A stretch of DNA of 27,885 nt from a virus: UHGV virus genome UHGV-1486778. One strand, given 5' to 3'. Below are positions 1 to 21,686 of the stretch, in pieces. The position numbers were made by a program, and so were the translations under genes. The notes under the pieces were generated by a model. The model saw only the letters and a program-made list of their open reading frames with translations. It was not told where the DNA came from and did not search any database. Position 1 is the stretch's first letter. Each line of letters begins with the position of its first letter.

Positions 1-286
1 GCACCAGACGGCGGTGATAGTTATCCGCGACCATTCCGGCATATCCCTTCAGGTTTGCGGCACTCGGACAGTTTTTGCTGGTCATCAGGATTGACGTGAA
101 ATTCTCCTCTCCGCACGCCTCGGCAACCATCAGCGCGTCGATTAGGTTTCTGTTTCTCGCCTGCTTCCGGATAACTTCGAAGGCTTTCCGGTAGAGCGGA
201 ATTGAAAACGCTTCCGGCTCCAGCATTGCCAGAACGAAAGGCGCGAACCAATTCAGAGCGGAACCATCGACGCATCGAGTCAGGCG

Positions 287-1291
287 ATGGATGAGCTTGT
301 AAATCGTCTTTCAGCCATCAGAAAACCCCGTGACGAGGTTAAACCTGTACGGTTAGGGGAAATCATCACCGACTACACTGACACGCTTGACAGGCGTCTG
401 AGGAACGGAGAAGAGTCAGATACCCTGAAGACCGGAATCGAAGAACTTGATGCCATCACCGGAGGGATGAACGCGGAAGACCTGGTGATAATCGCTGCTC
501 GTCCTGGTATGGGTAAAACCGAACTGGCGCTGAAGATTGCCGAAGGCGTTGCAAGCCGCGTTATTCCCGGTTCTGACGTCCGGCGCGGAGTGTTGATTTT
601 CTCGATGGAAATGAGCGCATTGCAGATTGCAGAGCGAAGCATTGCCAACGCCGGGAGGATGTCGGTTAGCGTGCTGCGAAACCCTGCATCGATGGATGAC
701 GAAGGCTGGGCGCGTGTTGCTAACGGCATGAGTCAGCTTGCAGATTTGGATGTATGGGTAGTCGATGCCTCGCGGTTATCGGTCGAAGAAATTCGCTCAA
801 TCGCAGAACGGCACAAACAGGAAAATCCAAACCTGTCACTCATCATGGCGGATTATCTTGGCCTGATTGAGAAGCCGAAAGCAGATCGCAACGACCTCGC
901 AATTGCTCACATCTCCGGAAGTCTAAAAGCGATGGCGAAAGACCTGAAAACGCCTGTTATCTCCCTAAGTCAGCTTTCGCGCGATGTTGAGAAGCGACCA
1001 AACAAACGCCCGACAAACGCAGATTTGCGTGATTCTGGAAGCATTGAACAGGACGCAGACTCAATCATCATGCTCTATCGGGAAGCGGTATATGACGAGA
1101 ACAGTAGCGCCGCGCCATTTGCTGAAATCATTGTGACGAAAAACCGTTTTGGCTCGCTTGGTACGGTTTACCAGCGGTTCTGCAACGGACACTTTGTTGC
1201 ATGTGACCAGGACGAAGCCAGACAGATTTGCACAGCATCAAATGCACCTGCTGCGCGTGGCAGACGATATGCACAAGGGGCTGACGTATGA
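287..1291 (+). CDS. DnaB-family replicative helicase, C-terminal RecA-like ATPase domain only (334 aa)
   Basis: Walker A motif [11 protein letters not shown], and DnaB-like [22 protein letters not shown] and [17 protein letters not shown] blocks. The frame has a stop at 203-205 and no start codon before 287, so the roughly 170-aa DnaB N-terminal domain is absent in frame. Confidence 0.8.
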
Positions 1292-1317
1292 CCATCTACA
1301 TCACTGAGCTAATAACA

Positions 1318-1348
1318 GGGGCTATTTACACAGTAGCCCTTTTTTATT
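1318..1348 (+). terminator. Rho-independent terminator, tR2-like position downstream of the replication gene
   Basis: Stem gggcta (1319-1324) pairs with tagccc (1334-1339) around a 9-nt loop, followed by ttttttatt. It lies 27 nt after the helicase stop. Confidence 0.6.
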
Positions 1349-1374
1349 GGATTAAGAGCGAGGGGTAAGTACCG

Positions 1375-1557
1375 ATGGTAAATGCATTTATTTGTAGTTT
1401 ATTTCTTGTCGCGATTTTTCATGGATTCCTTCTGATGATGAGTTTTGTTCTCTGGAATAATGGATATCGCATATTGGGAGTAGGTTTTGTTTTACGGTTT
1501 TCAGTCCTCTGCGCGTTGCTACCGATAATTATGGCGACTATCAAATATTATTGGTGA
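1375..1557 (+). CDS. Small hydrophobic protein (60 aa, about 2 predicted TM helices), unknown function
   Basis: ATG preceded by GAGGGG 6 nt upstream. The local sequence is AT-rich and the product is almost entirely hydrophobic. Occupies the ren/ninA slot of lambdoid phages. Confidence 0.4.
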   Translation: MVNAFICSLFLVAIFHGFLLMMSFVLWNNGYRILGVGFVLRFSVLCALLPIIMATIKYYW

Positions 1558-1572
1558 CCCAAAAAATCATCG

Positions 1573-1923
1573 ATGGAGAGTGATATGGACGAATCAAGAA
1601 AGCAGTTTGAAGAAAGTTGGTTGCGACGTGGAGGCGAATCTTCAGACCTTATCCGTTACCCTGAAAATCACCATGAAATTGGCAGCGGTAATATTGGTGG
1701 TCAATACGTGATGAACGATGTTCAAGGCCACTGGCAAACGTGGCAGGCATCGCGAGCAGCTTTTGAACTGGATATCGACTGGCCCGAATCGAATGACGAC
1801 TTTTGGAAAGATGGTGAAGAAGGTGCTTATGCGATGGGTTATGAGGATGGGCGTGACAAAACGATAATTGCAGTAATGAAAGCTATCAGAGCCGCTGGAA
1901 TTAAAGAGAAGAATTTTCGATGA
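1573..1923 (+). CDS. Acidic, Trp-rich hypothetical protein (116 aa; alternative start at 1585 with SD GGAGAG)
   Basis: Open frame whose stop overlaps the ninB start in ATGA at 1920-1923. About 23 Asp/Glu versus 14 Lys/Arg. No family recognised. Confidence 0.5.
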   Translation: MESDMDESRKQFEESWLRRGGESSDLIRYPENHHEIGSGNIGGQYVMNDVQGHWQTWQASRAAFELDIDWPESNDDFWKDGEEGAYAMGYEDGRDKTIIAVMKAIRAAGIKEKNFR

Positions 1924-2330
1924 AGCAAACAATCTTCCTCCGAACTAAGCAACAACAGCAAGCTGCAATAAATGCCATCCTCGCAACACCACTCGATAAA
2001 GACAAGCCAGTCACCATCCGCATTACTGACTACAAGCGCAACCTTGACCAGAACGCAAAATTTCACGCGATGGTCGCAGATATCGCTCGTCAGGTTCAAT
2101 GGTGCGGCAAATGGTTAAAACCGGAACAATGGAAGGTTTTGTTGATTAGCGGTCATGCAGTGGCAACAAACCTGGAAACTGATGTTTTGCCCGGGCTTGA
2201 AGGCGAATACGTCAACATTCGCGAAAGCAGCGCGCAGATGAGCGTGAAGCGCATGGCAAGTCTGATCGAGTACACAACAGCCTGGGCTATTGGTCAGGGT
2301 GTCAGATTTACCGACAGGAGGTACGAATGA
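1920..2330 (+). CDS. ninB: NinB recombination protein (Orf-family recombination mediator)
   Basis: 136 aa. Recalled similarity to lambda NinB (DQN...QVxWxGxWLxxExWK block) and position at the head of the nin region. Confidence 0.8.
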
Positions 2331-2503
2331 GACGACAGCGACGAAGTTTCACCGACATCATCTGCGAAAACTGCAAATACCTTCCAACGAAGCGCTCCAG
2401 AAACAAACGCAAGCCAATCCCAAAAGAATCTGACGTAAAAACCTTCAATTACACAGCTCACCTGTGGGATATCCGGTGGCTAAGACATCGTGCGAGGAAA
2501 TGA
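2327..2503 (+). CDS. ninE: NinE protein (58 aa)
   Basis: Translated by hand: [58 protein letters not shown], which closely matches NinE as I recall it. Absent from the ORF track because it is under 60 aa. ATGA overlap with ninB. Confidence 0.75.
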
Positions 2504-2865
2504 CAATGGATTATTCACAGTTAAGTGATTTTGAAATTAACAAGCGAGTGGCAATTTGCTGTGGATTTGCTCCCGAAGATTGCGAAATCGCAAAGTTGGG
2601 AACATCAATCGTTGGTGTTGAGTGGGATGACGAAACTGGTTATGCAATAAAAACGGTTGATTACTGTAAAAGCCCATCAGACGCAGAGCCGATTATCGTA
2701 GAGAACAGAATTGGAATTATTCCAGCACCAGAAAATGGATTATGGAAGGCAGCGCATAGAAAAGTTGGCGGTGATAGTACCCCATATCATATGACTCAAG
2801 ATGAAAACCCACTCCGCGCTGCCATGATTGTCTTTCTCATGATGCAGGACGCCAATAATGCTTAG
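2500..2865 (+). CDS. NinX-like protein (121 aa from ATG 2500)
   Basis: Located between ninE and ninF, as ninX is in P22-type nin regions. ATGA overlap with the ninE stop. The family call is by synteny only. Confidence 0.5.
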
Positions 2866-3034
2866 CCCATCCCAATCCATTCAATACCAGAAAGAAAGCG
2901 TCGAGCGAGCTTTAACGTGCGCTAACTGCGGTCAGAAGCTGCATGTGCTGGAAGTTCACGTGTGTGAGCACTGCTGCGCAGAACTGATGAGCGATCCGAA
3001 TAGCTCAATGTACGAGGAAGAAGACGATGAGTGA
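2858..3034 (+). CDS. ninF: NinF protein (58 aa, Cys-rich)
   Basis: Translated by hand: [58 protein letters not shown], which matches lambda NinF as I recall it. Under 60 aa, so not in the ORF track. Confidence 0.75.
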   Translation: MLSPSQSIQYQKESVERALTCANCGQKLHVLEVHVCEHCCAELMSDPNSSMYEEEDDE

Positions 3035-3239
3035 TTACCTGAAATGGTATCTCTGCCACCGCTGGTTAATTAAGTTTGCTGTAAAAGACTGGATGACAGC
3101 GGATGCCAACAAGCTTAAGCAAAGAAAAGACTATTACTACGCCAGAATGAAGGAAAACTACTGCTCAATTCGCACTCGCATATTTATTAAAAAAGACCTT
3201 CAGTCAATTCTTCAATTGCGAGGGAAGGTAAATGGCTAA
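3027..3239 (+). CDS. Hypothetical basic protein (70 aa)
   Basis: Open frame overlapping the ninF stop and the next start. AT-rich. No family recognised. Confidence 0.4.
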   Translation: MSDYLKWYLCHRWLIKFAVKDWMTADANKLKQRKDYYYARMKENYCSIRTRIFIKKDLQSILQLRGKVNG

Positions 3240-3522
3240 CCTACGCAAAGAAGCGCGCGGCAGAGAATGCCAGGTACGTATTTACGGCGTATGCAATGGC
3301 AATCCTGAAACTACAGTTCTGGCACATTACCGGATGGCTGGAATTTGCGGAACGGGAATGAAGCCTGACGACCTGATCGGCGCATGGGCTTGTAGCGCGT
3401 GTCACGATGAAATCGACCGACGCACCCATAATCTCGACAACAAAGACGCCAGACTTTACCACCTCGAAGGCGTGATCAGGACGCAGGCGATACTGCTGAA
3501 GGAGGGGAAGATTAAGTCATGA
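3232..3522 (+). CDS. YbcO-like (DUF1364) putative zinc-binding nuclease (96 aa)
   Basis: Cys/His-rich (CQVRIYGVCNG...CSACHDEID) and the same 96-aa length as the DLP12 prophage protein YbcO, which sits immediately upstream of rusA there as well. Confidence 0.65.
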   Translation: MANLRKEARGRECQVRIYGVCNGNPETTVLAHYRMAGICGTGMKPDDLIGAWACSACHDEIDRRTHNLDNKDARLYHLEGVIRTQAILLKEGKIKS

Positions 3523-3881
3523 ACGAATATCAGTTTGTGCTCCCATACCCGCCGTCGGTGAATACCTACTGGCGAAGACGGGGAAGCCAATATTACATAA
3601 GCGACAAAGGCCAGAAATACCGAAAAGACGTTCAGCAAATCATCCGCCAACTCAAGTTAGACATTTTCACCAAATCACGACTCCGTATCAAAGTCATCGC
3701 AGACGTTCCGGACTCCCGCCGTCGCGACCTCGACAACATCCTGAAAGGTTTACTCGACTCCCTTATCCACGCCGGATTTGCGGAAGACGACGAGCAATTC
3801 GATGACATTCGCGTAATTCGTGGCGTGAAAGTACCAGGCGGAAGGCTTGGAATAAAAATCACCGAACTGGAGAACGCATGA
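3519..3881 (+). CDS. rusA: RusA Holliday-junction resolvase
   Basis: 120 aa with PYPPSVNxYWRRRG and RRRDLDN(I)LKGLLDSL motifs characteristic of RusA. ATGA overlap with the flanking genes. Confidence 0.85.
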   Translation: MNEYQFVLPYPPSVNTYWRRRGSQYYISDKGQKYRKDVQQIIRQLKLDIFTKSRLRIKVIADVPDSRRRDLDNILKGLLDSLIHAGFAEDDEQFDDIRVIRGVKVPGGRLGIKITELENA

Positions 3882-4066
3882 ACGCCACAATTCAAACGAT
3901 ACCAGAGCTTCTTATCCAGACACGAGGCAATCAGACCGAAGTGGCAAGGATGCTTTCCTGCGCAAGAGGAACAGTGCTCAAGTACAACCGAGACAGCAAA
4001 GGCGAGCGTCACGTAATAGTTAACGGCGTCCTGATGGTCAAACAGGGCAAAAGGGGAAGGCCATGA
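3878..4066 (+). CDS. ninH: NinH (small HTH protein)
   Basis: 62 aa with GNQTEVARMLSCARGTVLKY...HVIVNGVLMV, matching lambda NinH as I recall it. Immediately upstream of Q. Confidence 0.7.
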   Translation: MNATIQTIPELLIQTRGNQTEVARMLSCARGTVLKYNRDSKGERHVIVNGVLMVKQGKRGRP

Positions 4067-4686
4067 GACTCGAAAGCGTAGCTAAATTTCATTCGCCAAA
4101 AAGCCCAATGATGAGTGACTCACCACGGGCTACGGCTTCTGACTCTCTTTCCGGTACTGATGTGATGGCTGCTATGGGGATGGCGCAATCACAAGCCGGA
4201 TTCGGTATGGCTGCATTCTGCGGCAAGCACGAACTCAGCCAGAATGACAAACAAAAGGCTATCAACTATCTGATGCAATTTGCACACAAGGTATCGGGGA
4301 AATATCGTGGTGTGGCAAAGCTCGAAGGAAATACTAAGGCAAAGGTACTGCAAGTGCTCGCAACATTCGCTTATGCGGATTATTGCCGTAGTGCCGCGAC
4401 GCCGGGCGCAAGATGCAGAGATTGCCACGGTACAGGCCGTGCGGTTGATATTGCCAAAACAGAGCAGTGGGGGAGAGTTGTTGAGAAAGAGTGTGGAAGA
4501 TGCAAAGGCGTCGGCTATTCAAGGATGCCAGCAAGCGCCGCATATCGCGCTGTAACGATGCTAATCCCCAACCTTACCCAACCCACATGGTCACGCACTG
4601 TTAAGCCGCTGTATGACGCTCTGGTGGTGCAATGCCACAAAGAAGAGTCAATCGCAGACAACATTTTGAATGCGGTCACACGTTAG
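4063..4686 (+). CDS. Q: Late-gene antiterminator Q (lambda-type)
   Basis: The 207-aa product matches my recollection of lambda Q essentially throughout, including the Cys cluster CRDCHGTGR...CGRCKGVGY, and it is followed by a lambda-type PR'/qut region. Confidence 0.9.
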   Translation: MRLESVAKFHSPKSPMMSDSPRATASDSLSGTDVMAAMGMAQSQAGFGMAAFCGKHELSQNDKQKAINYLMQFAHKVSGKYRGVAKLEGNTKAKVLQVLATFAYADYCRSAATPGARCRDCHGTGRAVDIAKTEQWGRVVEKECGRCKGVGYSRMPASAAYRAVTMLIPNLTQPTWSRTVKPLYDALVVQCHKEESIADNILNAVTR

Positions 4687-4728
4687 CAGCATGATTGCCA
4701 CGGATGGCAACATATTAACGGCATGATA

Positions 4729-4757
4729 TTGACTTTTTGAATAAAGTTGGGTAAATT
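4729..4757 (+). promoter_or_regulatory. Late promoter PR' with overlapping qut site (lambda-type)
   Basis: -35 TTGACT at 4729-4734, a 17-bp spacer, and -10 TAAATT at 4752-4757. The surrounding sequence matches the lambda PR'/qut region as I remember it. Confidence 0.7.
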
Positions 4758-4763
4758 TGACCC

Positions 4764-4957
4764 AACGATGGGTTAATTCGCTCGTTGTGGTAGTGAGATG
4801 AAAAGAGGCGGCGCTTACTACCGATTCCGCCTAGTTGGTCACTTCGACGTATCGTCTGGAACTCCAACCATCGCAGGCTGAGAGGTCTGCAAAATGCAAT
4901 CCCGAAACAGTTCGCAGGTAATAGTTAGAGCCTGCATAACGGTTTCGGGATTTTTTA
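4764..4957 (+). ncRNA. 6S-like short late leader transcript (PR' to tR')
   Basis: Runs from the inferred +1, about 7 nt past the -10, to the tR' hairpin and U-tract. Called by homology to the lambda late leader region. Confidence 0.5.
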
Positions 4958-4958
4958 T
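4899..4958 (+). terminator. tR' rho-independent terminator (substrate of Q antitermination)
   Basis: Arm atcccgaaac (4899-4908) pairs with gtttcgggat (4942-4951), with nested gcagg/cctgc pairing, followed by a T-run at 4951-4956. Confidence 0.7.
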
Positions 4959-5356
4959 ATCTGTGCAACAGGTAAGAGCATTCTCCCTTATGGGGCTTGG
5001 CTTAAATGCACCGAGTGCTCTTTCCGTTGTGCTGAATTAAGCGAATACCGGAAGCAGAACCGGATCAACAAATGCGTACAGGCGTCATCGCCGCCCAGCA
5101 ACAGCACAACCCAAACTGAGCCGTAGCCACTGGCTATCCTGAATTCATCAGTGATAGTTACGCTGCGGCCTTCTACACATGACCTTCGTGAAAGCGGGTG
5201 GCAAGAGGCTGCGCTAACAACCTCCTGCCGTTTTGCCCGTGCATATCGGTCACGAACAAATCTGATTACTAAACACAGTAGCCTGGATTTGTTCTATCAG
5301 TAATCGACCTTATTCCTAATTAAATAGAGCAAATCCCCTCAATGAAGGGGTAGAGC

Positions 5357-5560
5357 ATGTACCGTATGGACAAAATCAGAGAATGGTTCAGTTACAGCTT
5401 CGGAGGACTGACTGCGATGGGTGGCATTCTCTCCCTGAATGACTGGGCTGTCATCATTGGTATTCTTTGTACTGTCGGCACATTTGGCATCAACTGGTAC
5501 TACAAGCGCAAAGAGCGCGAGGACAGATTGAATGGCAATGTCACCGGCACTACGAAATAG
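5357..5560 (+). CDS. Holin, class II pinholin-like, with dual-start motif (M1-Y-R-M4)
   Basis: 67 aa with two TM segments, the first Gly/Ser/Ala-rich and SAR-like. Two in-frame ATGs at 5357 and 5366 are separated by a basic residue. It sits immediately upstream of, and overlaps, a SAR endolysin gene. Confidence 0.75.
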
Positions 5561-6035
5561 CGTAATAGCGGCGATAAGTGGCGGGGCTATTGCTATAGCA
5601 TCTGTGTTAATCACTGGCCCAAGTGGTAACGATGGTCTGGAAGGTGTCAGTTACATACCATACAAAGATATTGTTGGCGTATGGACTGTATGTCACGGAC
5701 ACACCGGAAAAGACATTATGCTCGGTAAAACGTATACCGAAGCAGAATGCAAAGCCCTCCTGAATAAAGACCTCGCCACCGTCGCCAGACAAATTAACCC
5801 GTACATCAAAGTCGATATACCGGAAACAACGCGCGGCGCTCTTTACTCGTTCGTTTACAACGTTGGTGCTGGAAATTTCAGAACATCGACACTTCTTCGC
5901 AAAATAAACCAGGGCGATATCAAAGGCGCATGTGATCAGCTACGGCGCTGGACATACGCTGGCGGTAAGCAATGGAAAGGGCTGATGACTCGCCGTGAGA
6001 TTGAGCGTGAAGTCTGTTTGTGGGGGCAACAATGA
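5532..6035 (+). CDS. SAR endolysin (T4-type lysozyme, GH24) with N-terminal signal-anchor-release domain
   Basis: Weakly hydrophobic Gly/Ala-rich N-terminus ([20 protein letters not shown]) followed by a lysozyme-like domain ([11 protein letters not shown]...[12 protein letters not shown]). Confidence 0.85.
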
Positions 6036-6475
6036 GTAGAGTAACCGCGATTATCTCCGCTCTGGTTATCAGCATCATCGTCTGCCTGTCATGGGCTGTT
6101 AATCATTACCGTGATAACGCCATGACCTATAAAGAACAGCGCGACAAAGCCACATCCATCATCGCTGACATGCAGAAGCGTCAACATGATGTAGCTGAAC
6201 TCGACGCCAGATACACAAAGGAGCTTGCTGATGCTAACGCGACTATCGAAAGTCTTCGTGCTGATGTTTCTGCTGGTCGTAAGTGGCTGCACGTCAAAGC
6301 AGTCTGTCCGGACAAGCATAAAACCACCGCCGCCTCCGGCGTGGATGATGCTTCCAGCCCCAGACTTACTGACACCGCTCAACGGGATTATTTCGTTCTC
6401 AGAGAGCGCATCGAAACCATAACTAACCAATTGAATGGCCTGCAAGAATATGTGAGATCACAGTGTTCATATTAG
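6032..6475 (+). CDS. Rz: Rz-type inner-membrane spanin (i-spanin)
   Basis: N-terminal TM helix followed by a coiled-coil-like periplasmic domain. The start overlaps the endolysin stop in ATGA. Contains an embedded Rz1-type gene in the +1 frame. Confidence 0.75.
6231..6422 (+). CDS. Rz1: Rz1-type outer-membrane lipoprotein spanin (o-spanin), embedded in Rz
   Basis: SD AAGGAG 8 nt upstream of ATG 6231. Signal peptide with lipobox LVVSGC, and a Pro-rich mature part ([10 protein letters not shown]). Lies entirely inside Rz in the +1 frame. Confidence 0.7.
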
Positions 6476-6888
6476 AAAAGTCTTATCATAAGATTTTTGT
6501 ATATGGATGCATTATGTCTCAATACGCTCACGTTGCTTTAATCGCTTATCATTTGGTGGCTGATAGCTCAATGACTCCTCGTGATGCATGGGATGCAGCT
6601 ATCGCAGAGGTTACAGAAAGCGAATCGTCAAGAAAGAAGATATGCCCAAGGGCAACATTTCTCGCCCTGGCGGATAGCGGTTACCTGAAGAATGTAAAAC
6701 CACTGCATGGGGAGAAAAAAGGCGGTAAGTTGTACCAAAGGGCAATTGAAGTTGCGAATCTGATTCTTGATTTACCCGGAATCAGTAAAGCTGAATTGGT
6801 TGATAAAACTGGTTACAAAGACAGGCAAGGGTCTTATGACCTGATTCTCGCTCTGTATCATCATGAGCAACTCCAGCGATCGGAATAA
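6463..6888 (+). CDS. Hypothetical soluble protein (141 aa from GTG 6463; 124 aa from ATG 6514)
   Basis: Long open frame in the AT-rich block between Rz and the HNH gene. No recognisable motif. Confidence 0.5.
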
Positions 6889-7005
6889 TTATCCCAGCAT
6901 CAGTGTCAAAAATAGGCAGTGATACGCTATTTTCCTGAAAATACTTTACTAACATTTTATGAGAATTATCCTAGTAATGTGTTTATTTAAAAGGAGTTTG
7001 GGTTT

Positions 7006-7209
7006 ATGAAAATTCTCTGGGTCATCAGTCTTTTGTGTAGTGCTATTGGATTTATTGAAGGAATCCTCGGGGTTTTCGGTGCTCAGAGTGCTCCACAACA
7101 GGCTGCAGGTGCAGCAATGGGAGTAGCATGGGCAGTTATTCCATATTGTATTTGTCGTGCTATCCAACAATTGCGCCCTCGAGAAGTCATTATTAAAAAG
7201 GAAGAATGA
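7006..7209 (+). CDS. Small membrane protein (67 aa, 2 predicted TM helices), unknown function
   Basis: Strong SD AAGGAG 8 nt upstream of the ATG. Hydrophobic Gly/Ala-rich core and a charged C-terminus. Its stop overlaps the HNH start in ATGA. Confidence 0.55.
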   Translation: MKILWVISLLCSAIGFIEGILGVFGAQSAPQQAAGAAMGVAWAVIPYCICRAIQQLRPREVIIKKEE

Positions 7210-7625
7210 CCAGATCTTATCCGGTGTTTTTTCTGTCTAAGCCTCGCGTCGCGGGGCTTTTTATTGGAGCCAGCATGCCACCACGAACCCCAAAAGCCTG
7301 CCGTGTTCGCGGCTGCCGCCATACCACAACTGACCCGTCAGGCTATTGCGAAAGCCACAAAAGTGAAGGCTGGAAGCAATACAAGCCGGGCCAGTCCAGA
7401 CACCAGCGCGGTTATGGTTCGAAATGGGATGTTATCCGTGAACGTGTGCTCAAGCGTGACAAAGGACTGTGTCAGTTATGTCTGCGTGGTGGTGTGGTAC
7501 GTGAGGCGAAAACCGTTGACCACATCATCCCTAAAGCGCATGGCGGCACTGATGCCGACAGCAATCTGCAGAGCCTGTGCTGGCCGTGTCATAAGGCGAA
7601 GACGGCCCGTGAACGGTTGAAGTAA
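7206..7625 (+). CDS. HNH endonuclease, terminase-associated (alternative start at 7275)
   Basis: HNH motif DHIIPKAHGGTDADSNLQSLCWPCHKAK and a Cys cluster CRVRGCRH...CESH. Sits immediately upstream of the small terminase, as in HK97-like cos phages. Confidence 0.85.
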   Translation: MTRSYPVFFLSKPRVAGLFIGASMPPRTPKACRVRGCRHTTTDPSGYCESHKSEGWKQYKPGQSRHQRGYGSKWDVIRERVLKRDKGLCQLCLRGGVVREAKTVDHIIPKAHGGTDADSNLQSLCWPCHKAKTARERLK

Positions 7626-7750
7626 GAACCAGTTCCCACTGCCAGAGGGGAGGGACGGGTCAAATCCCTGTGACCTGACGTCTTCCGGACTGCCCGCCCC
7701 ATCGTTTTTTTATACCCGCGAAAAATGAAATTTAACCAGGAGTGCCGCAT

Positions 7751-8245
7751 ATGGCTGGAACGGCGGGGCGTTCCGGGCGTCGCCCCAAGCCAACGGCGCG
7801 CAAGGCGCTGGCCGGAAACCCCGGCAAGCGAGCCCTGAATAAAGATGAACCTGTTTTTACGCCCATCAAAGGTGTTGAGCCACCGGAGTGGTTCGCTGAA
7901 GAAGATCTCCCTCTCGCCACGATCATGTGGCAACTGACAACCAAAGAACTCTGCGGTCAGGGCCTGCTGTGCGTGACTGACCTCGCGGTGCTTGAGCGGT
8001 GGTGCGTGGCCTACGAGTTCTGGCGACGTGCCGTGAAAAATATTGCCAGACAGGGCAACACCATCACCGGTGCAATGGGCGGTATGGTCAAAAATCCGGA
8101 GCTGACCGCCAAAAAAGAACAGGAGTCCGAGATGAGCAGTACGGGGGCAATGCTCGGACTCGACCCCAGCAGCCGCCAGCGTCTGATTGGCCTGGCGGGG
8201 AAGAAGAAAGCCACTAACCCGTTTCTGAAAATCATCGAGTCATGA
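7751..8245 (+). CDS. Terminase small subunit (P27/HK97-type)
   Basis: Basic N-terminus ([13 protein letters not shown]), position directly upstream of the large terminase, and typical size. The ORF track's start at 7742 is a GTG too close to the SD AGGAG at 7735-7739. Confidence 0.75.
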
Positions 8246-11410: not shown

Positions 11411-12038
11411 TGTACCGCTGAGTCTGAAATCTGTCAGTGACTCCGGTGAGTTTGAAGGGTATGGCTCCGTCTTTGGTGTAAAGGACAGCCACGATGATGT
11501 GGTGATGTCCGGGGCATTTGCTGCTTCCCTGCGGGCGTGGAGTGACAGAAAAGCGTTACCTGCGCTGCTCTGGCAGCACCGCATGGATGAACCCATCGGT
11601 GTTTACACCGAAATGAAGGAAGACGATGTCGGGCTTTACGTCAGGGGACGGTTGCTTATTGATGATGATCCCCTCGCAAAACGCGCACATGCACACATGA
11701 AGGCCGGTTCGTTAACCGGCCTTTCTATTGGGTATGTCCTGAAAGACTGGGAATACGACCGGAGCAAAGAAGCCTTTCTGCTGAAAGAAATCGACCTCTG
11801 GGAAGTCAGCCTGGTGACGTTCCCGTCTAACGACGAGGCGCGGATCAGCGACGTCAAGAACGCACTGGCCCGCGGGGAAATCCCCGAACAGAAAAAAATC
11901 GAAAGAGTCCTGCGTGATGTCGGACTCTCCCGTACCCAGGCCAAAGCATTCATGGCCGGGGGCTATGGCGCACTGTCCCTGCGCGACGCTGAGGATGTGG
12001 GCTCTGCACTGAATGCACTGAAAAATCTGAACTTCTAA
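11388..12038 (+). CDS. Prohead maturation protease (HK97 gp4 / S78 family)
   Basis: Lies between the portal and major capsid genes. The ATG at 11388 overlaps the portal 3' end. Typical size of about 216 aa. Confidence 0.8.
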   Translation: MQTKQRLDVPLSLKSVSDSGEFEGYGSVFGVKDSHDDVVMSGAFAASLRAWSDRKALPALLWQHRMDEPIGVYTEMKEDDVGLYVRGRLLIDDDPLAKRAHAHMKAGSLTGLSIGYVLKDWEYDRSKEAFLLKEIDLWEVSLVTFPSNDEARISDVKNALARGEIPEQKKIERVLRDVGLSRTQAKAFMAGGYGALSLRDAEDVGSALNALKNLNF

Positions 12039-12052
12039 TCAGGAGAAATACG

Positions 12053-13258
12053 ATGGCGGTTGATATTAAAGATGTCGAACAGGTCGCGCAGGAGCTGCAG
12101 CAGAAGTTTGACGACTTCAAAGCAAAGAACGACAAGCGCGTGGATGCGATTGAGCAGGAAAAAGGCAAACTTGCCGGGCAGGTGGAAACCCTGAACGGGA
12201 AACTCAGCGAGCTGGAAAACCTCAAAAGCGATCTTGAAAAAGAGCTTCTTGAGCTGAAACGTCCGGCAGGTGGTGCGCAAAATAAACTGGCCACCGAGCA
12301 TAAAGAAGCGTTTGTGGGCTTCCTGCGTAAAGGCCGTGAAGATGGTCTGCGCGATCTGGAGCGCAAGGCATTACAGGTGGGCACCGATGAAGACGGCGGC
12401 TATGCCGTGCCGGAAGCACTGGATCGCAACATTCTTACCCTGCTGAAAGATGAAGTGGTGATGCGCCAGGAAGCCACGGTGATCACCGTTGGCGGTTCCG
12501 ACTACAAAAAACTGGTGAATCTGGGCGGCACGGCTTCCGGATGGGTTGGCGAGACTGACGCGCGCTCCCAGACTGCCACCTCAAAACTGGGACTGATTGA
12601 ACCTTTCATGGGGGAAATCTACGGTAACCCGCAGGCTACCCAGAAAATGCTGGATGATGCCTTTTTCAACGTGGAAGCATGGATCAACAGCGAGCTGGCA
12701 ACCGAATTTGCCGAACAGGAAGAAATTGCCTTTACCACCGGCGATGGTACCAAGAAGCCGAAAGGGTTCCTGGCGTATGAATCCACTGATGAAACCGATA
12801 AGGTCCGGGCGTTCGGCAAACTTCAGCATATTGTATCCGGCGAAGCGACGGCGGTGACCGCAGACGCCATTATCAAACTGATTTACACGCTGCGTAAGGC
12901 ACACCGCACTGGCGCGAAGTTCATGATGAACAACAACAGCCTGTTTGCCATCCGTCTGCTGAAAGACACCGAGGGTAACTATCTGTGGCGTCCGGGGCTG
13001 GAACTGGGGCAGCCGTCCTCTCTGGCGGGTTACGGTATCGCTGAAAACGAACAGATGCCGGATATCGCCGCTGATGCGAAAGCCATTGCATTTGGTAACT
13101 TCAAACGGGGTTACACCATCGTTGACCGTATCGGCACCCGCATTCTGCGTGACCCGTACACCAATAAACCGTTTGTCGGTTTTTATACCACCAAGCGCAC
13201 CGGCGGGATGCTGGTCGATTCGCAGGCCATCAAACTGCTGAAGATTGCAGCGGCGTAA
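12053..13258 (+). CDS. Major capsid protein (HK97 fold) with N-terminal coiled-coil delta domain
   Basis: 401 aa. Coiled-coil scaffold-like N-terminus (EQVAQELQQKF...LSELENLKSDLEKELLELKRP) followed by a capsid domain. Good SD AGGAG. Confidence 0.9.
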   Translation: MAVDIKDVEQVAQELQQKFDDFKAKNDKRVDAIEQEKGKLAGQVETLNGKLSELENLKSDLEKELLELKRPAGGAQNKLATEHKEAFVGFLRKGREDGLRDLERKALQVGTDEDGGYAVPEALDRNILTLLKDEVVMRQEATVITVGGSDYKKLVNLGGTASGWVGETDARSQTATSKLGLIEPFMGEIYGNPQATQKMLDDAFFNVEAWINSELATEFAEQEEIAFTTGDGTKKPKGFLAYESTDETDKVRAFGKLQHIVSGEATAVTADAIIKLIYTLRKAHRTGAKFMMNNNSLFAIRLLKDTEGNYLWRPGLELGQPSSLAGYGIAENEQMPDIAADAKAIAFGNFKRGYTIVDRIGTRILRDPYTNKPFVGFYTTKRTGGMLVDSQAIKLLKIAAA

Positions 13259-16937: not shown

Positions 16938-17293
16938 TGGCCCGTATCGGGGGAACCTGTTATTTCAAAATTGACGGTCAGCAGCTATCGCTGACCGGCG
17001 GCATTGAGGTGCCCATGAACAGGACGGTCAATGATGACATCATCGGCCTGGACGGTTCAGTGGACCGCAAGGAAACTCACCGTGCGCCTTATGTCAAAGG
17101 GACCTTCAAGGTGCCGAAGAATTTTCCGGTGAGCAAAATCACCTCGTCTGATGAGATGACCATCACTGCCGAGCTGGCGAACGGTCAGGTCTATGTACTG
17201 TCGTCTGCCTGGCTGCACGGCGAAGCGAACCATAATGCCGAAGAAGGCACGGTCGATCTTGAGTTCCACGGTGAAGAAGGGGATTACCAGTAA
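16937..17293 (+). CDS. Tail tube protein (Mu gpM-like)
   Basis: 118 aa, directly downstream of the sheath gene. Confidence 0.75.
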   Translation: MARIGGTCYFKIDGQQLSLTGGIEVPMNRTVNDDIIGLDGSVDRKETHRAPYVKGTFKVPKNFPVSKITSSDEMTITAELANGQVYVLSSAWLHGEANHNAEEGTVDLEFHGEEGDYQ

Positions 17294-17562
17294 TGAAAGA
17301 GCTTGAGTTAAAGAAACCGATTACCGCTCATGGCGAGACACTCTCCGTACTGGAGTTTGATGAGCCCACCGGGAAAGATGTCCGCGAGCTGGGGTATCCC
17401 TACCAGATGAATCAGGATGAGTCCGTCAGACTTCTGGCGCATGTGGTGTCGAAATACATTGTGCGGCTGGCGAAAGTGCCGCAAAGCTCTGTCGACCAGA
17501 TGTCTCCGGCAGACCTGAATGCAGCGGCGTGGCTTGTGGCTGGTTTTTTCCTCCAGGCCTGA
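17293..17562 (+). CDS. Tail assembly chaperone (Mu gp41-like); a -1 frameshift would extend the product to 17711
   Basis: 89 aa, directly upstream of the tape measure gene. Slippery heptamer T_TTT_TTC at 17544-17550. The -1 frame stays open to 17711 and overlaps the tape measure start. Confidence 0.7.
   Translation: MKELELKKPITAHGETLSVLEFDEPTGKDVRELGYPYQMNQDESVRLLAHVVSKYIVRLAKVPQSSVDQMSPADLNAAAWLVAGFFLQA
17544..17550 (+). other. Candidate programmed -1 ribosomal frameshift site (X_XXY_YYZ = T_TTT_TTC)
   Basis: The heptamer lies in the zero frame of the chaperone 12 nt before its stop, and the -1 frame continues for 54 codons. Confidence 0.6.
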
Positions 17563-17703
17563 CGGCTGAATACCTCACTGATCGCTTCTTTGACTGCGCC
17601 AGCTACTGGCGCATTAATCCCTTCGAATTGCTGAATATGCCGATCAGTGAAATTCCCTTGCTGGTCAGTCAGGCAAACAGGATAGAGCAGGAGAAACGCA
17701 CAC

Positions 17704-19545
17704 ATGGCTGAATTTGAGCTTAAGGCGTTGATCACCGGTGTCGACAGGCTTTCTCCCGCGCTGTCGAAAATGCAAAAGAAAATCCGGGGATTTAAACGCC
17801 AGGCGGAAGAAGCGTCACAGGGTGGGCTGGCGCTTGGTGGCGGACTGGCTGCGGGTCTGACGCTTTCCCTGAAATCTTATGCCGATCAGGAAAACGCCGC
17901 CACCGGGCTGAAAGTCGCCATGATGGATGCGAACGGCGAGGTTGGAAAGAGCTTTCAGGACATCAATAAACTGGCTATTGGTCTGGGTAACCAGCTACCC
18001 GGTACAACGGCTGATTTCCAGAACATGATGCAGATGCTGGTGCGTCAGGGGATCCCGGCAGAAAACATTCTGGGTGGTGTGGGTAAAGCGACAGCTTATC
18101 TTGCGGTACAACTGAAAAAAACACCGGAAGCGGCTGCTGAGTTTGCTGCAAAGATGCAGGATGCTACCGGAACGGCGTCAGAAGACATGATGGGGCTGTT
18201 CGACACTATCCAGAAGGCGTTTTATCTGGGCGTTGACGATACCAACATGTTGTCCTTCTTCACTAAAACCAGTTCTGTTCTGAAGATGGTGAACAAGGAG
18301 GGTCTTCAGGCTGCACAGAGCCTTGCCCCCATCAGCGTCATGATGGATCAGATGGGGATGAACGGGGAGTCGGCAGGTAATGCCCTGCGAAAAGTTATCC
18401 AGTCCGGATTAAGCGTTAAGAAAATCAGGGACGTCAATAAAGTCATGGCCCGCCAGAAACTCGGGGTACAGCTCGATTTTACTGACGGCAAAGGAAGTTT
18501 TGGCGGTCTTGATAACATGTTCAGGCAACTGGCAAAGCTGCGAAAACTGACCGACGTTAAGCGAACAGGTGTACTTAAGGCAATATTTGGTGATGATGCC
18601 GAAACCCTTCAGGTGGTCAATGCACTAATCGATAAAGGAAAGGATGGCTACGATCAGATCCAGCAGAAGATGAATAAACAGGCCAGCCTGAATAAACGTG
18701 TTCAGGCCCAGCTTGGTACGCTGTCCAACCTGTGGGAGGCAATGACGGGGACCGCAACTAACGGCCTTGCGGCTATTGGCGGCGCATTTTCTGGTGACGC
18801 CAAAAATATCACGCAATGGCTGGGGGAGTTAGGGGAAAAATTCACGAAGTTTGCGGATGAAAATCCCCGGGTTATTCGCGGCGTCGTCGGGCTTGCTGCC
18901 GGTCTTGCGATTCTGAAACTGGGATTGATGGGCGTTGGCGGGGCCATCAGTATTGTCAGCAGGATCATGTCGATGACGCCGATTGGAATGATTGCGACGG
19001 CGATAGCCCTGGCTGCGGGATTAATTATCACTAACTGGGATGTTGTCGGACCTTATTTCAAGAAGCTCTGGGAAACCATTGGTCCTTATTTTGAGGCTGG
19101 CTGGGAACTTCTGAAGAAGGTTTTTGCCTGGTCGCCGCTGGGGATGGTAATCAATAACTGGGGACCGGTTGTTAAGTGGTTTCAGGATATGTGGGACAAG
19201 CTGAAGCCAATTATTGAGTGGTTTACCGACAGTTCCGGTGACACGGTCGATGCCATTAACTCTGCGCAGTGGGGCGCGGGTGCTTATGATGCTTATGGGA
19301 CGGGATTCCCGGCGCGGGGATACACACCTTATCCGGCCATGGATCCGGCTCAGGCAAACAACGCCTCCGATGCCACAGGCCCGAATCCCTTCATGATTAA
19401 CAAAGCTTCTGCGCCAAAAGTTGACGGTGAGATCAAGGTCTCTTTTGTGAATTCGCCTCCGGGTATGCGGGTTATGGAAACGCGATCCAGCGGTATCGAC
19501 GTGAATCACGACGTTGGCTACACCCGATTTGGTATGGGGGGCTGA
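17704..19545 (+). CDS. Tail tape measure protein
   Basis: 613 aa, Ala/Gly/Leu-rich with helical N-terminal two-thirds and a hydrophobic segment (IGMIATAIALAAGLII). Position after the chaperone. Confidence 0.85.
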   Translation: MAEFELKALITGVDRLSPALSKMQKKIRGFKRQAEEASQGGLALGGGLAAGLTLSLKSYADQENAATGLKVAMMDANGEVGKSFQDINKLAIGLGNQLPGTTADFQNMMQMLVRQGIPAENILGGVGKATAYLAVQLKKTPEAAAEFAAKMQDATGTASEDMMGLFDTIQKAFYLGVDDTNMLSFFTKTSSVLKMVNKEGLQAAQSLAPISVMMDQMGMNGESAGNALRKVIQSGLSVKKIRDVNKVMARQKLGVQLDFTDGKGSFGGLDNMFRQLAKLRKLTDVKRTGVLKAIFGDDAETLQVVNALIDKGKDGYDQIQQKMNKQASLNKRVQAQLGTLSNLWEAMTGTATNGLAAIGGAFSGDAKNITQWLGELGEKFTKFADENPRVIRGVVGLAAGLAILKLGLMGVGGAISIVSRIMSMTPIGMIATAIALAAGLIITNWDVVGPYFKKLWETIGPYFEAGWELLKKVFAWSPLGMVINNWGPVVKWFQDMWDKLKPIIEWFTDSSGDTVDAINSAQWGAGAYDAYGTGFPARGYTPYPAMDPAQANNASDATGPNPFMINKASAPKVDGEIKVSFVNSPPGMRVMETRSSGIDVNHDVGYTRFGMGG

Positions 19546-19626
19546 TACCCCGCTTAAACACGGGTTTTGTCGTTTAGCAGGTTCTTGGTAGGATTAGTCC
19601 GATACTTTAATGATGGGAATAGGGAT

Positions 19627-20304
19627 ATGAAAGTCTTAACAATTTATTCAGTTGTCGGCATGGCTCTTTTACTCGGGGGATGTACCTCTCCGAAGTACAA
19701 TTATTTACCAAAAACAGAAAATTATAGTGAACCTCCTGTAGGAAGCATTAATACAGCTTATGTCGGTGATTCAATGATTAAGCAGGGGGTGTCACAGAGG
19801 TTTGAAGGTCTGAAGGTTAATGCTCCTGCGAGAATTTCCTGGGCGTATACGATCACTCCGGGGATGCTGAAAAAGGTTGGTGAGGATAACAAGGCTGATT
19901 ATTACTTTCTCACAAACGGTGCTGATTCAGCCAATGTGGAAAAGGCAGCCCTTGCCGATATGTGGCAGGGCATCATGGTAGAAAAGAAAAAGAATGCCTT
20001 ATGTGTAATAACAGTTTTCGGTGTTACCAACTGTGAAACTAACATGCCTATCGAAAAGGTTACTCTGAATATCAGTGGTGATTCATCTTTCCAGCAAGCT
20101 CTGCTTTACAACGGAAGGGTCGGAAACAAAATCAACATTGGATATCGTGAATTTTCATCGAATACAGCACGCCCGGCCTTCAACAACGATGTTGAGTATG
20201 ATCTCGCGGAGTCTAAAACAATTGGCTATAAAGGGGCTAAATTCGAAGTACTTGATGCGAGTAACCAAAGCATAAGGTATCGGGTAATAAGTAACTTTAG
20301 ATAA
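19627..20304 (+). CDS. Putative outer-membrane lipoprotein (225 aa), cargo gene inside the tail operon
   Basis: Signal peptide MKVLTIYSVVGMALLLGGC with lipobox Cys followed by T at +2. Lower GC than the flanking tail genes. Has its own terminator 15 nt downstream. The ORF track's TTG start at 19567 is unlikely. Confidence 0.6.
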   Translation: MKVLTIYSVVGMALLLGGCTSPKYNYLPKTENYSEPPVGSINTAYVGDSMIKQGVSQRFEGLKVNAPARISWAYTITPGMLKKVGEDNKADYYFLTNGADSANVEKAALADMWQGIMVEKKKNALCVITVFGVTNCETNMPIEKVTLNISGDSSFQQALLYNGRVGNKINIGYREFSSNTARPAFNNDVEYDLAESKTIGYKGAKFEVLDASNQSIRYRVISNFR

Positions 20305-20318
20305 GCGATAATTTAATG

Positions 20319-20342
20319 AAACCCGCTTCGGCGGGTTTTTTT
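20319..20342 (+). terminator. Rho-independent terminator after the lipoprotein gene
   Basis: Perfect 8-bp stem aaacccgc / gcgggttt around loop ttcg, followed by a T-run of at least 7. Confidence 0.8.
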
Positions 20343-20357
20343 ATATCCGGAGTTTAT

Positions 20358-21686
20358 ATGACGTGGAAAGACAGACTTCAGGGCGCGTCATTTCGCGGCG
20401 TGCCGTTTAAGGTTGAAGAAGAAAGTGCGGGAACCGGTCGTCGTGTGGAAACGCACGAATACCCGAACCGCGACAAACCCTATACCGAAGACCTGGGGAA
20501 AATCACTTTCCGCCCGTCCATCACGGCTTATGTGGTGGGAGATGACTGCTTTGACCAGCGCGATCGCCTGATTGACGCGCTGAATAAACCCGGTCCCGGC
20601 ACGCTTGTCCATCCGACTTACGGTGAGCTGAAAGTCTGTGTTGACGGAGAGGTTCGGGTCAGCACATCGAAGAGTGAAGGGCGTATTGTCCGCTTTGACC
20701 TGAAGTTTGTCGAAGCAGGAGAACTCTCTTACCCCACATCAGGTGCGGCGACGGCGCAGACGCTGATGTCATCCTGTTCTGCACTGGATGACTGCATCAG
20801 TGACAGCTTCAGCGGTTTCAGTATCGATGGTGTGGCGGATTTCGTGCAGAACGACGTTATCGGTAATGCCAGCATAATGCTGGGGTATGTTTCTGATGCG
20901 ATGAAAGTGGTGGATTCTGCCGTATCGGATGCCGCCAGGCTGTTGCAGGGGGATATCTCGGTACTTCTGCCGCCGCCATCGTCAGGCAAAAATTTCGTTG
21001 AGCAGGTGCAGAAAATGTGGCGTACCGGGAAACGCCTTTATGGTAACGCCAGCGACCTGGTCACCATGATCAAAACGCTTTCCGGTGTCAGCCTCGGCAG
21101 CGATCTGCAACCGCGCGGCGTCTGGAAAACGGACAGTAAAACCACCGCCACGGCGACGCAGCAGCGTAACGTGGTTGCCAGCACTCTTCGTACGACCGCA
21201 ATCAGCGAAGCGGCGTATGCCGTTACCCGATTGCCTGCGCCAACAACTTTCGCGGTGATGCAGAATTCCGCAGTGGGGCAGACAACAACACCCGCGCAGA
21301 GCAGTGGCTGGCCTTCCGTCACGCATTCGGCACTGAACAATGCACCGGCGGTGAAAAACACGGTTGACCTGCCGACGTGGGAAGAACTGACTGACATTCG
21401 CGACATACTGAATACGGCAATTGATAAGGAGTTGTCCCGTACAACCAGCGATGCGCTGTTTCTGGCGCTGCGCCGGGTGAAAGCAGATCTGAATGCGGAT
21501 ATCAACACGCGCCTTGAACAGTCTGCACGGATCATTCAGCGCACACCGGATGAGGTTTTACCCGCGCTGGTGCTGGCGGCGACCTGGTTTGATAACGCGG
21601 CGCGTGACGCGGACATTATCCGGCGTAATGCCATTACGCATCCCGGCTTTGTGCCGGTGATCCCTCTGAAGGTGCCAGTGCAATGA
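20358..21686 (+). CDS. DNA circulation protein (Mu gpN/gp43-like)
   Basis: Position after the tape measure gene, and size. Start set at ATG 20358 (SD GGAG at 20349-20352), because the ORF-track start at 20316 lies inside the terminator hairpin. Confidence 0.65.
   Translation: MTWKDRLQGASFRGVPFKVEEESAGTGRRVETHEYPNRDKPYTEDLGKITFRPSITAYVVGDDCFDQRDRLIDALNKPGPGTLVHPTYGELKVCVDGEVRVSTSKSEGRIVRFDLKFVEAGELSYPTSGAATAQTLMSSCSALDDCISDSFSGFSIDGVADFVQNDVIGNASIMLGYVSDAMKVVDSAVSDAARLLQGDISVLLPPPSSGKNFVEQVQKMWRTGKRLYGNASDLVTMIKTLSGVSLGSDLQPRGVWKTDSKTTATATQQRNVVASTLRTTAISEAAYAVTRLPAPTTFAVMQNSAVGQTTTPAQSSGWPSVTHSALNNAPAVKNTVDLPTWEELTDIRDILNTAIDKELSRTTSDALFLALRRVKADLNADINTRLEQSARIIQRTPDEVLPALVLAATWFDNAARDADIIRRNAITHPGFVPVIPLKVPVQ

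Follow-up and report, generated by a model that had tools for sequence, protein, structure and literature searches.

A predicted lipoprotein gene as very probable moron-type cargo in a polymorphic tail-operon slot of SfV/SfII-like Escherichia coli prophages

Gene content of the locus

The window, a 27,885-nt stretch of DNA analysed in full (UHGV virus genome UHGV-1486778), is that of a temperate phage of the SfV/SfI/SfII group, with a lambdoid early region, an HK97-type head and a Mu-type tail. Genes for DnaB, NinB, RusA, a Q antiterminator, lysozyme and Rz are followed by genes for terminase, capsid, sheath, tube and baseplate; lysozyme and Rz form a lysis cassette at positions 5532-6475. An Rfam scan of the window identified no RNA family. 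The stop codon of the tape-measure gene (19545) and the ATG of the gpN-like gene (20358) are separated by 812 nt, within which there is a single plus-strand ORF; the interval 19546-20357 singled out by the initial annotation is exactly this gap. The following features define the slot between the two genes and the gene that it carries, hereafter the cargo gene.

4063..4686, plus strand: Q-type antiterminator gene, lambdoid (PF03589 Antiterm, 1.3e-57)
17704..19545, plus strand: tape-measure gene (PF10145 PhageMin_Tail, 3.8e-27), left wall of the slot
19546..19571, plus strand: degenerate remnant of a hairpin and T-run (CCCG, 8 nt, CGGG, TTTTGT), left end of the cassette
19567..19594, plus strand: candidate promoter (-35 TTGTCG at 19567-19572; extended -10 TG at 19586-19587; -10 TAGGAT at 19589-19594)
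19614..19625, plus strand: ribosome-binding region of the cargo gene (GGGAATAGGGA)
19627..20304, plus strand: cargo gene, encoding a predicted 225-aa prolipoprotein (ATG 19627, stop 20302-20304; phrog_1353, 1.5e-98)
19627-19680, plus strand: predicted signal peptide, aa 1-18 (lipobox pattern)
19681-19683, plus strand: codon of the predicted lipidated Cys19 (lipobox pattern)
20318..20342, plus strand: intrinsic terminator (9-bp stem, UUCG loop, T7), right wall of the slot
20349..21686, plus strand: gpN-like gene (DNA circularisation/baseplate; ATG 20358; PF07157, 2.1e-33), including its GGAG ribosome site

Phage Mu has no gene at the corresponding point, as had been claimed: only 4 nt separate the end of Mup42 (26203) from the start of Mup43 (26208). 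On the other side of the tape-measure gene, in the interval that separates it from the tube gene, there are two overlapping plus-strand ORFs (17293-17562 and 17529-17711), the first of which matches PF10109 (tail assembly chaperone); judging by their arrangement, they look like the usual chaperone pair with a programmed frameshift.

The start of the cargo gene was placed at ATG 19627, which is the start called for RefSeq protein WP_000866660.1 (“hypothetical protein”) in a 100%-identical E. coli prophage and which agrees with the N-termini of 47 aligned homologues. Because both the RefSeq call and the alignment favor this ATG, the TTG at 19567, which opens a 245-aa mechanical ORF, was rejected as a start. 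Within the ribosome-binding region, ATAGGGATATG is kept among enterobacterial copies of the gene. The N-terminus, MKVLTIYSVVGMALLLGG followed by C19-T20, matches a PROSITE PS51257-type lipobox pattern, with MKVLTIYSVVGMALLLGGC as the matching segment; 46 of the 47 homologues also match, and the cysteine is invariant. Based on the lipobox pattern and the invariant cysteine, the cargo protein is a predicted lipoprotein, with a mature form of 207 aa, and the 225-aa lipoprotein with an LLGGC lipobox that was described initially (LLGG before Cys19, Thr at +2) is thus upheld. The alignment shows no family member with Asp at +2, where the cargo protein has Thr20, and by the +2 rule we infer that the product would be sorted to the outer membrane. 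The lower GC content noted previously was also confirmed, with 41.6% in the cargo ORF compared to 52.3% in the tape-measure gene, 56.3% in the gpN-like gene and 52.4% in the whole window.

Polymorphism of the slot in E. coli and related phages

In phages SfI, SfII and SfV, both flanks are 92-94% identical to those of the window, yet only 60 nt lie between the two genes. Among 5426 complete E. coli genomes, the slot junction is carried by ~1100 records, and in an evenly spaced sample of these records about half have an empty slot. The cargo cassette is present in 54 of the 5426 genomes (~1%). As many genomes have the full junction as have the full insert, which indicates that the cassette always occupies this slot. 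We identified two E. coli alleles of the cargo gene (30 genomes at ≥99% identity and 25 at ~94%), with a dN/dS of 0.12 between them, and the gene is intact in 54 of 55 carrier genomes.

At least six slot states occur in E. coli: the slot may be empty, contain the lipoprotein gene, or contain a gene for one of four unrelated small proteins. The four alternative cargos are as follows, with coordinates referring to each one's own record.

3319-3831, plus strand: 170-aa secreted protein, as in phage SKA5; 31% GC; 84 genomes
493-870, plus strand: 125-aa PH-domain protein; 24-28 genomes
470-916, minus strand: 148-aa “OB-fold” protein with an N-terminal membrane segment; 58-79 genomes
429-959, plus strand: 176-aa protein with an N-terminal membrane segment; strain C11

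All four are low in GC (31-38%), and three of the four have an N-terminal signal or membrane segment. The final tape-measure codons differ with each slot state, so we placed the left junction there. At the right wall, the stretch TATATCCGGAGTTTATATG at the gpN ribosome site is common to all plus-strand slot states.

The same tail region occurs in a prophage of E. coli PS_131_S11 that carries gtrA and gtrB and is integrated beside a tRNA-Arg gene and yfdC; its slot region is 100% identical to that of the window.

Given an interval of 812 nt in place of 60 nt (in SfII and in the empty E. coli slot) between flanks that are ~93% identical, and a base composition unlike that of its neighbors, we are confident that 19546-20357 is a moron-type cargo cassette in a polymorphic tape-measure/gpN slot of an SfV/SfII-like, gtr-carrying E. 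coli prophage and not part of the virion. The absence of the gene from otherwise near-identical SfV/SfI/SfII-type phages identifies it as optional cargo and not a tail component. These comparisons firmly establish the cargo as a horizontally acquired, predicted lipoprotein gene under purifying selection. A moron as such is an ordinary feature of the textbook kind; this slot, however common morons may be, is well populated, swappable and located in very common serotype-converting prophages of E. coli and Shigella.

The terminator at the right wall

The strong terminator reported behind the cargo gene was confirmed. Its stem spans 20318-20339, with the core CCCGC-TTCG-GCGGG at 20322-20335 and a T7 run at 20336-20342, and the hairpin has a predicted energy of -16.4 kcal/mol (z = -2.5 relative to shuffled sequences). 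The initial annotation had taken this terminator as a sign that the cargo is an autonomous insert. That the gene is an insert is supported by its absence between ~93%-identical flanks, but the terminator fails as proof of autonomy: in all plus-strand slot states, the empty one included, a hairpin and T-run abut TAT.T.CGGAGT.TAT immediately before the ATG of gpN, and the authors of the SfII genome annotated the terminator in the empty slot. Being present in every plus-strand state, the terminator is a constant of the slot and provides no evidence that the cargo gene is autonomous.

The window hairpin and its empty-slot version are identical at 40 of 48 positions, including 7 nt on the 5′ side of the stem, and a compensatory change from G-C to A-T occurred within the stem. 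A comparable similarity exists outside this backbone, with 47 of 55 positions identical, extending through GGAGTTTATATG, between the window hairpin and the stretch behind a 60%-identical cargo copy in a Rouxiella prophage. Terminators behind cargo homologues in Rouxiella, Citrobacter and Erwinia prophages resemble that of the window, and the one behind the Pseudocitrobacter copy (88% identical) differs. HK97 gene 15 is also trailed by a CCCGC/GCGGG stem, which suggests that short stems of this type are generic. Because of these equally similar hairpins behind homologues elsewhere and the generic HK97 stem, the attribution of the terminator to the phage backbone was dropped as a firm claim.

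The linker from the terminator to the ribosome site (hairpin, T-run and CGGAGTTTATATG) is found at 20318-20360 in the window, at 3253-3303 of an empty-slot record, and in the Rouxiella siphovirus-type prophage, where it lies ~75 nt after the cargo stop codon and is followed by a siphovirus-type tape-measure gene. Judging by this distribution, the linker may serve as a recombination joint for cassette exchange. In a single IMG/VR contig, the cargo and hairpin are kept (6676-6975), but what follows the T-run bears no relation to gpN; this contig may represent a rearrangement or a second backbone.

Upstream DNA and a candidate promoter

A simple sigma-70 consensus scan found no promoter on the 5′ side of the cargo gene. 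Approximately 75 nt upstream of the ATG are nevertheless homologous among cargo copies in different phage backbones, such that this DNA travels with the gene. Within it lies a candidate promoter that scores below the threshold of the consensus scan and has a weak -35 element; its predicted transcription start is at ~19600-19603. The element TGnTAGGAT (19586-19594 in the window) occurs 39-41 nt upstream of the ATG in five copies on different phage backbones, namely those of the window, the second E. coli allele, Pseudocitrobacter, Citrobacter and K. aerogenes. Of 89 distinct upstream regions from the family, 21 have an extended -10-like element at a distance of 31-45 nt from the start, compared to a mean of 2.4 and a maximum of 9 in shuffled controls (n=1000). 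The decanucleotide GGATTAGTCC at window positions 19591-19600 overlaps the candidate -10 element, and its Citrobacter counterpart is a perfect palindrome, GGATTAATCC; based on this symmetry, the site could be an operator.

The left end of the cassette (19546-19571) is homologous to an intact terminator (CCCGC-TTAACT-GCGGG-TTTTG) on the 5′ side of the Klebsiella aerogenes cargo copy, which resides in a siphovirus-type prophage; no stable fold was predicted for the remnant in the window copy. Several family copies have a terminator just upstream of the gene. A terminator remnant, a promoter-like element, the gene and a terminator thus follow one another in the classical layout of a moron.

The co-travelling upstream DNA with TGnTAGGAT is better evidence than the terminator that the cargo gene would form its own transcription unit. 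From these signals, it is likely that the gene has its own promoter, that the slot terminator insulates the baseplate genes from it in the lysogen, and that Q-dependent read-through occurs late. Such read-through during lytic growth, also proposed in the initial annotation, is plausible given the lambdoid Q gene at 4063-4686 (PF03589).

The cargo protein family

The cargo protein aligned to phrog_1353 over its full length (1.5e-98; residues 1-225 on profile positions 1-227 of 230), a family annotated as “function unknown.” Scans against Pfam, NCBIfam and PADLOC identified no family match: the best NCBIfam score was 17 bits against a cut-off of 138, no PADLOC defense family was found at E ≤ 0.1, and a relaxed Pfam scan of the 47 aligned members yielded only weak lipobox matches (LPAM_1, in 7 members). 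A profile search of PDB sequences returned one chance match (E = 0.28). In a literature search on phrog_1353, STM2726, WP_000866660 and lipoproteins of the P2 hotspot, we found no account of the family.

One search grouped the family into 1067 clusters at 90% identity, and an exhaustive profile search yielded 3059 clusters at 50% identity, nearly all of them single-domain proteins of ~225 aa. With 40-50% identity to the E. coli copy, members are spread over Gamma-, Beta-, Alpha- and Deltaproteobacteria, Nitrospirota, Planctomycetota, Verrucomicrobiota and further phyla. They are named as hypothetical proteins and now and then as lipoproteins. Cys126 and Cys136 are invariant in the 47 close homologues, which is consistent with an extracytoplasmic protein. 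Toward the C-terminus there is a strongly conserved polar motif, YNG.VG.KI..GYREF....ARPAFNNDVEYD...S..IGYKGA, of which YREF..ARPAFNNDVEYD..GYKGA is common to all members. A subfamily in P2-like phages (e.g., Fels-2 STM2726), with 27-29% identity, retains the lipobox and the C-terminal motif; the cysteine pair is missing from the Fels-2 subfamily.

AlphaFold predicted an all-beta structure for the cargo protein with confidence (pLDDT 90.8, pTM 0.72). The structure-based homology search recommended at the outset identified no convincing relative of this model among solved (PDB) or viral predicted structures. The family is thus large and unannotated, with no Pfam model and no relative among solved structures, and thousands of genes would gain an annotation from a single experiment on its E. 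coli member.

Genomic neighborhoods of homologues

We surveyed the neighborhoods of 82 distinct loci in species-representative genomes. The sole recurrent neighbor was a tape-measure gene, located one to three genes downstream in ~12 loci of the phage subset. At the remaining loci there was no conserved partner; neighbors were heterogeneous and often housekeeping genes, and three were integrases. In IMG/VR, a relative is encoded on 171 viral contigs. A plus-strand ORF of at least 590 aa lies within two genes on 44 of 80 sampled contigs, a sample inflated by numerous near-identical Acinetobacter prophages. Seven of eight scanned representatives of these large ORFs are tape-measure proteins (TMP_3, TMP_2 with TMP_4, or TMP_2 with lambda-C). 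Including PhageMin_Tail in the window, phage copies adjoin tape-measure genes of at least four unrelated Pfam families. In siphovirus-type prophages, family copies occupy the site between the chaperone and tape-measure genes.

The Fels-2 homologue STM2726 (4947-5678) is also a lipoprotein, and it adjoins a 565-aa AbiU homologue (5946-7643; PADLOC, 2.7e-112); the pair is located in the P2-like variable region between the replication gene gpA/DinI and the portal gene. A Geobacter copy adjoins an integrase gene and a reverse-transcriptase gene. In Acinetobacter phages such as Ab1656-2 (5130-5896 and 11475-12062 of that phage), a DUF4258/HTH pair precedes the homologue; the pair looks like a toxin-antitoxin system. 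Ab1656-2 also has a second, unrelated annotated lipoprotein gene after its tape-measure gene.

Comparison with known systems

HK97 gene 15 is the founding moron, and its product has been shown experimentally to be an inner-membrane superinfection-exclusion protein (PMC3594210). It is located between the tail chaperone gene and the tape-measure gene. Like the cargo gene, it is an optional tail-operon cassette beside the tape-measure gene with an envelope product, and its CCCGC/GCGGG hairpin and T-run likewise stand just before the ribosome site of the next gene. The two differ in that gp15 is a 62-aa inner-membrane protein whereas the cargo encodes a predicted lipoprotein of 225 aa, and in that gene 15 lies upstream of the tape-measure gene whereas the cargo gene lies downstream; BLASTP alignment of the two proteins revealed no sequence similarity (E = 22). 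Homologues of gp15 also occur in bacteria outside prophages (PMC3594210).

Based on the family scans, the cargo protein matched only phrog_1353 and is neither Cor nor Llp; in the initial annotation, it had been described as much larger than such receptor blockers and had not been recognized. Llp of phage T5 is a phage-encoded outer-membrane lipoprotein that protects the cell at phage entry; Llp and Cor are specific for FhuA and are several-fold smaller than the cargo protein. Cor, from phages phi80, N15 and HK022, is likewise an outer-membrane lipoprotein that acts at entry (PMC3594210). The cargo protein is set apart from both by its size (207 aa when mature) and by the scan results, and the conservation of its family in many phyla speaks against a blocker of this type, specific for one receptor.

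Ltp, which has a helical fold, targets the incoming tape-measure protein, and a target of this kind would fit the tape-measure adjacency of the cargo family. Encoded by Streptococcus thermophilus phage TP-J34, Ltp is expressed from the prophage as a surface-exposed lipoprotein and brings about superinfection exclusion (PMC3952083). We detected no homology between it and the cargo protein, and Ltp further differs in its Gram-positive host, its location in the lysogeny module and its helical fold, in contrast to the all-beta model of the cargo protein.

Among late-region add-ons, Bor of phage lambda is a prophage-expressed outer-membrane protein. The same holds for Lom of lambda (PMC3594210). 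Both belong to families unrelated to the cargo, with known host-interaction phenotypes.

Proposed role and alternatives

We tentatively propose, with somewhat less than even confidence, that the cargo is a lysogen-expressed outer-membrane lipoprotein that guards the cell envelope, with phage entry or genome delivery as the step most likely blocked. In the lysogen, the gene would be transcribed from its own extended -10 promoter, starting at ~19600, and transcription would end at the slot terminator, leaving the baseplate genes silent; during lytic growth, Q-modified polymerase would pass the terminator, such that the product would be made late as well. The protein would be exported, lipidated at Cys19 and, with Thr instead of Asp at +2, placed on the periplasmic face of the outer membrane, where it would protect the lysogen and have a conserved envelope component as its ligand. 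Most likely, it would impede entry of a superinfecting phage, with the block falling at, or later than, tail penetration and tape-measure-dependent DNA delivery; the HK97 gp15 moron, at the same kind of site, would be a precedent. Exclusion is suggested because phage copies adjoin unrelated tape-measure genes, as at the site of HK97 gene 15, and a link to defense is suggested because the Fels-2 copy adjoins AbiU and the Geobacter copy adjoins integrase and reverse-transcriptase genes. The recurrent adjacency at the gp15 position gives rise to a concrete hypothesis, a block of entry or genome delivery, although tape-measure adjacency may merely reflect permissive insertion sites. A broader version, which we regard as unlikely, is that phrog_1353 is a new, widespread envelope-level anti-phage family with an unseen fold, captured again and again by temperate phages beside their tape-measure genes for its ability to block tape-measure-dependent genome delivery, with its cassettes exchanged between unrelated tail modules through recombination at the linker from terminator to ribosome site.

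Against exclusion, no PADLOC model or annotated family matched the protein, neighbors at the sampled non-phage loci are unrelated housekeeping genes, the -35 element is weak, and the 40-50% identity across phyla argues for a general cellular envelope function. The main alternative, possible though doubtful, is a factor for lysogenic conversion or fitness; the phage would then have captured an outer-membrane lipoprotein of cellular origin whose role in the envelope is general and apart from phage exclusion. Such a protein might bind peptidoglycan, LPS or another component, or confer resistance to stress, serum, colicins or contact-dependent toxins; lambda Bor, which confers serum resistance, would be the model. 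Consistent with this, the family is mainly chromosomal, in stand-alone genes with housekeeping neighbors in many phyla; the polar motif is invariant, as if it had a conserved ligand; and the gtr genes of the prophage already alter the cell surface. Countering it circumstantially, phage copies recur at the site of an exclusion moron, and one adjoins AbiU. It is less probable still that the protein acts in the lytic cycle, being expressed mainly late under Q and either modulating lysis or masking receptors on the dying cell, as T5 Llp does so that progeny are not lost on debris. The cargo gene is co-oriented in the late operon downstream of Q and must therefore be transcribed late, and the -35 of its candidate promoter is weak, but the gene travels together with a conserved promoter-like element and with terminators on its flanks, phage-free chromosomes commonly encode homologues, and the window phage has a separate lysis cassette (lysozyme and Rz).

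Two further explanations have very little probability. That the cargo gene is a decaying hitch-hiker without current function would accord with its presence in only ~1% of E. coli genomes and its lack of a known function, but is hard to reconcile with the intact gene in nearly every carrier, with the low dN/dS, and with a family of >3000 clusters at 50% identity that has invariant residues. Its position between tape-measure and baseplate genes might also suggest a tail structural or assembly protein peculiar to this phage lineage. This, the least probable explanation, was effectively refuted: the gene is absent from the viable phages SfI, SfII and SfV, which have near-identical tail genes, and from most of the ~1100 related records; its product has a lipoprotein signal and its GC content is foreign; and it is exchangeable with unrelated small proteins, one of them encoded on the opposite strand.

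With its six or more states, the slot provides a small natural collection of candidate lysogen-protection genes; four of its cargos, the lipoprotein included, have N-terminal signal or membrane segments.

Other variable regions of the prophages

The early and lysis region of the window (1-7000, with DnaB, NinB, NinX, RusA and the PF03589 Q gene) is unlike its counterpart in the PS_131_S11 prophage (1-8000 of that record), a pattern of mosaic modules. In the interval between Q and lysis genes, the PS_131_S11 prophage encodes a lipocalin-family protein (3076-3600, minus strand) and a YbgA-family protein (3793-4752); these two genes are moron-like cargo in a second slot.
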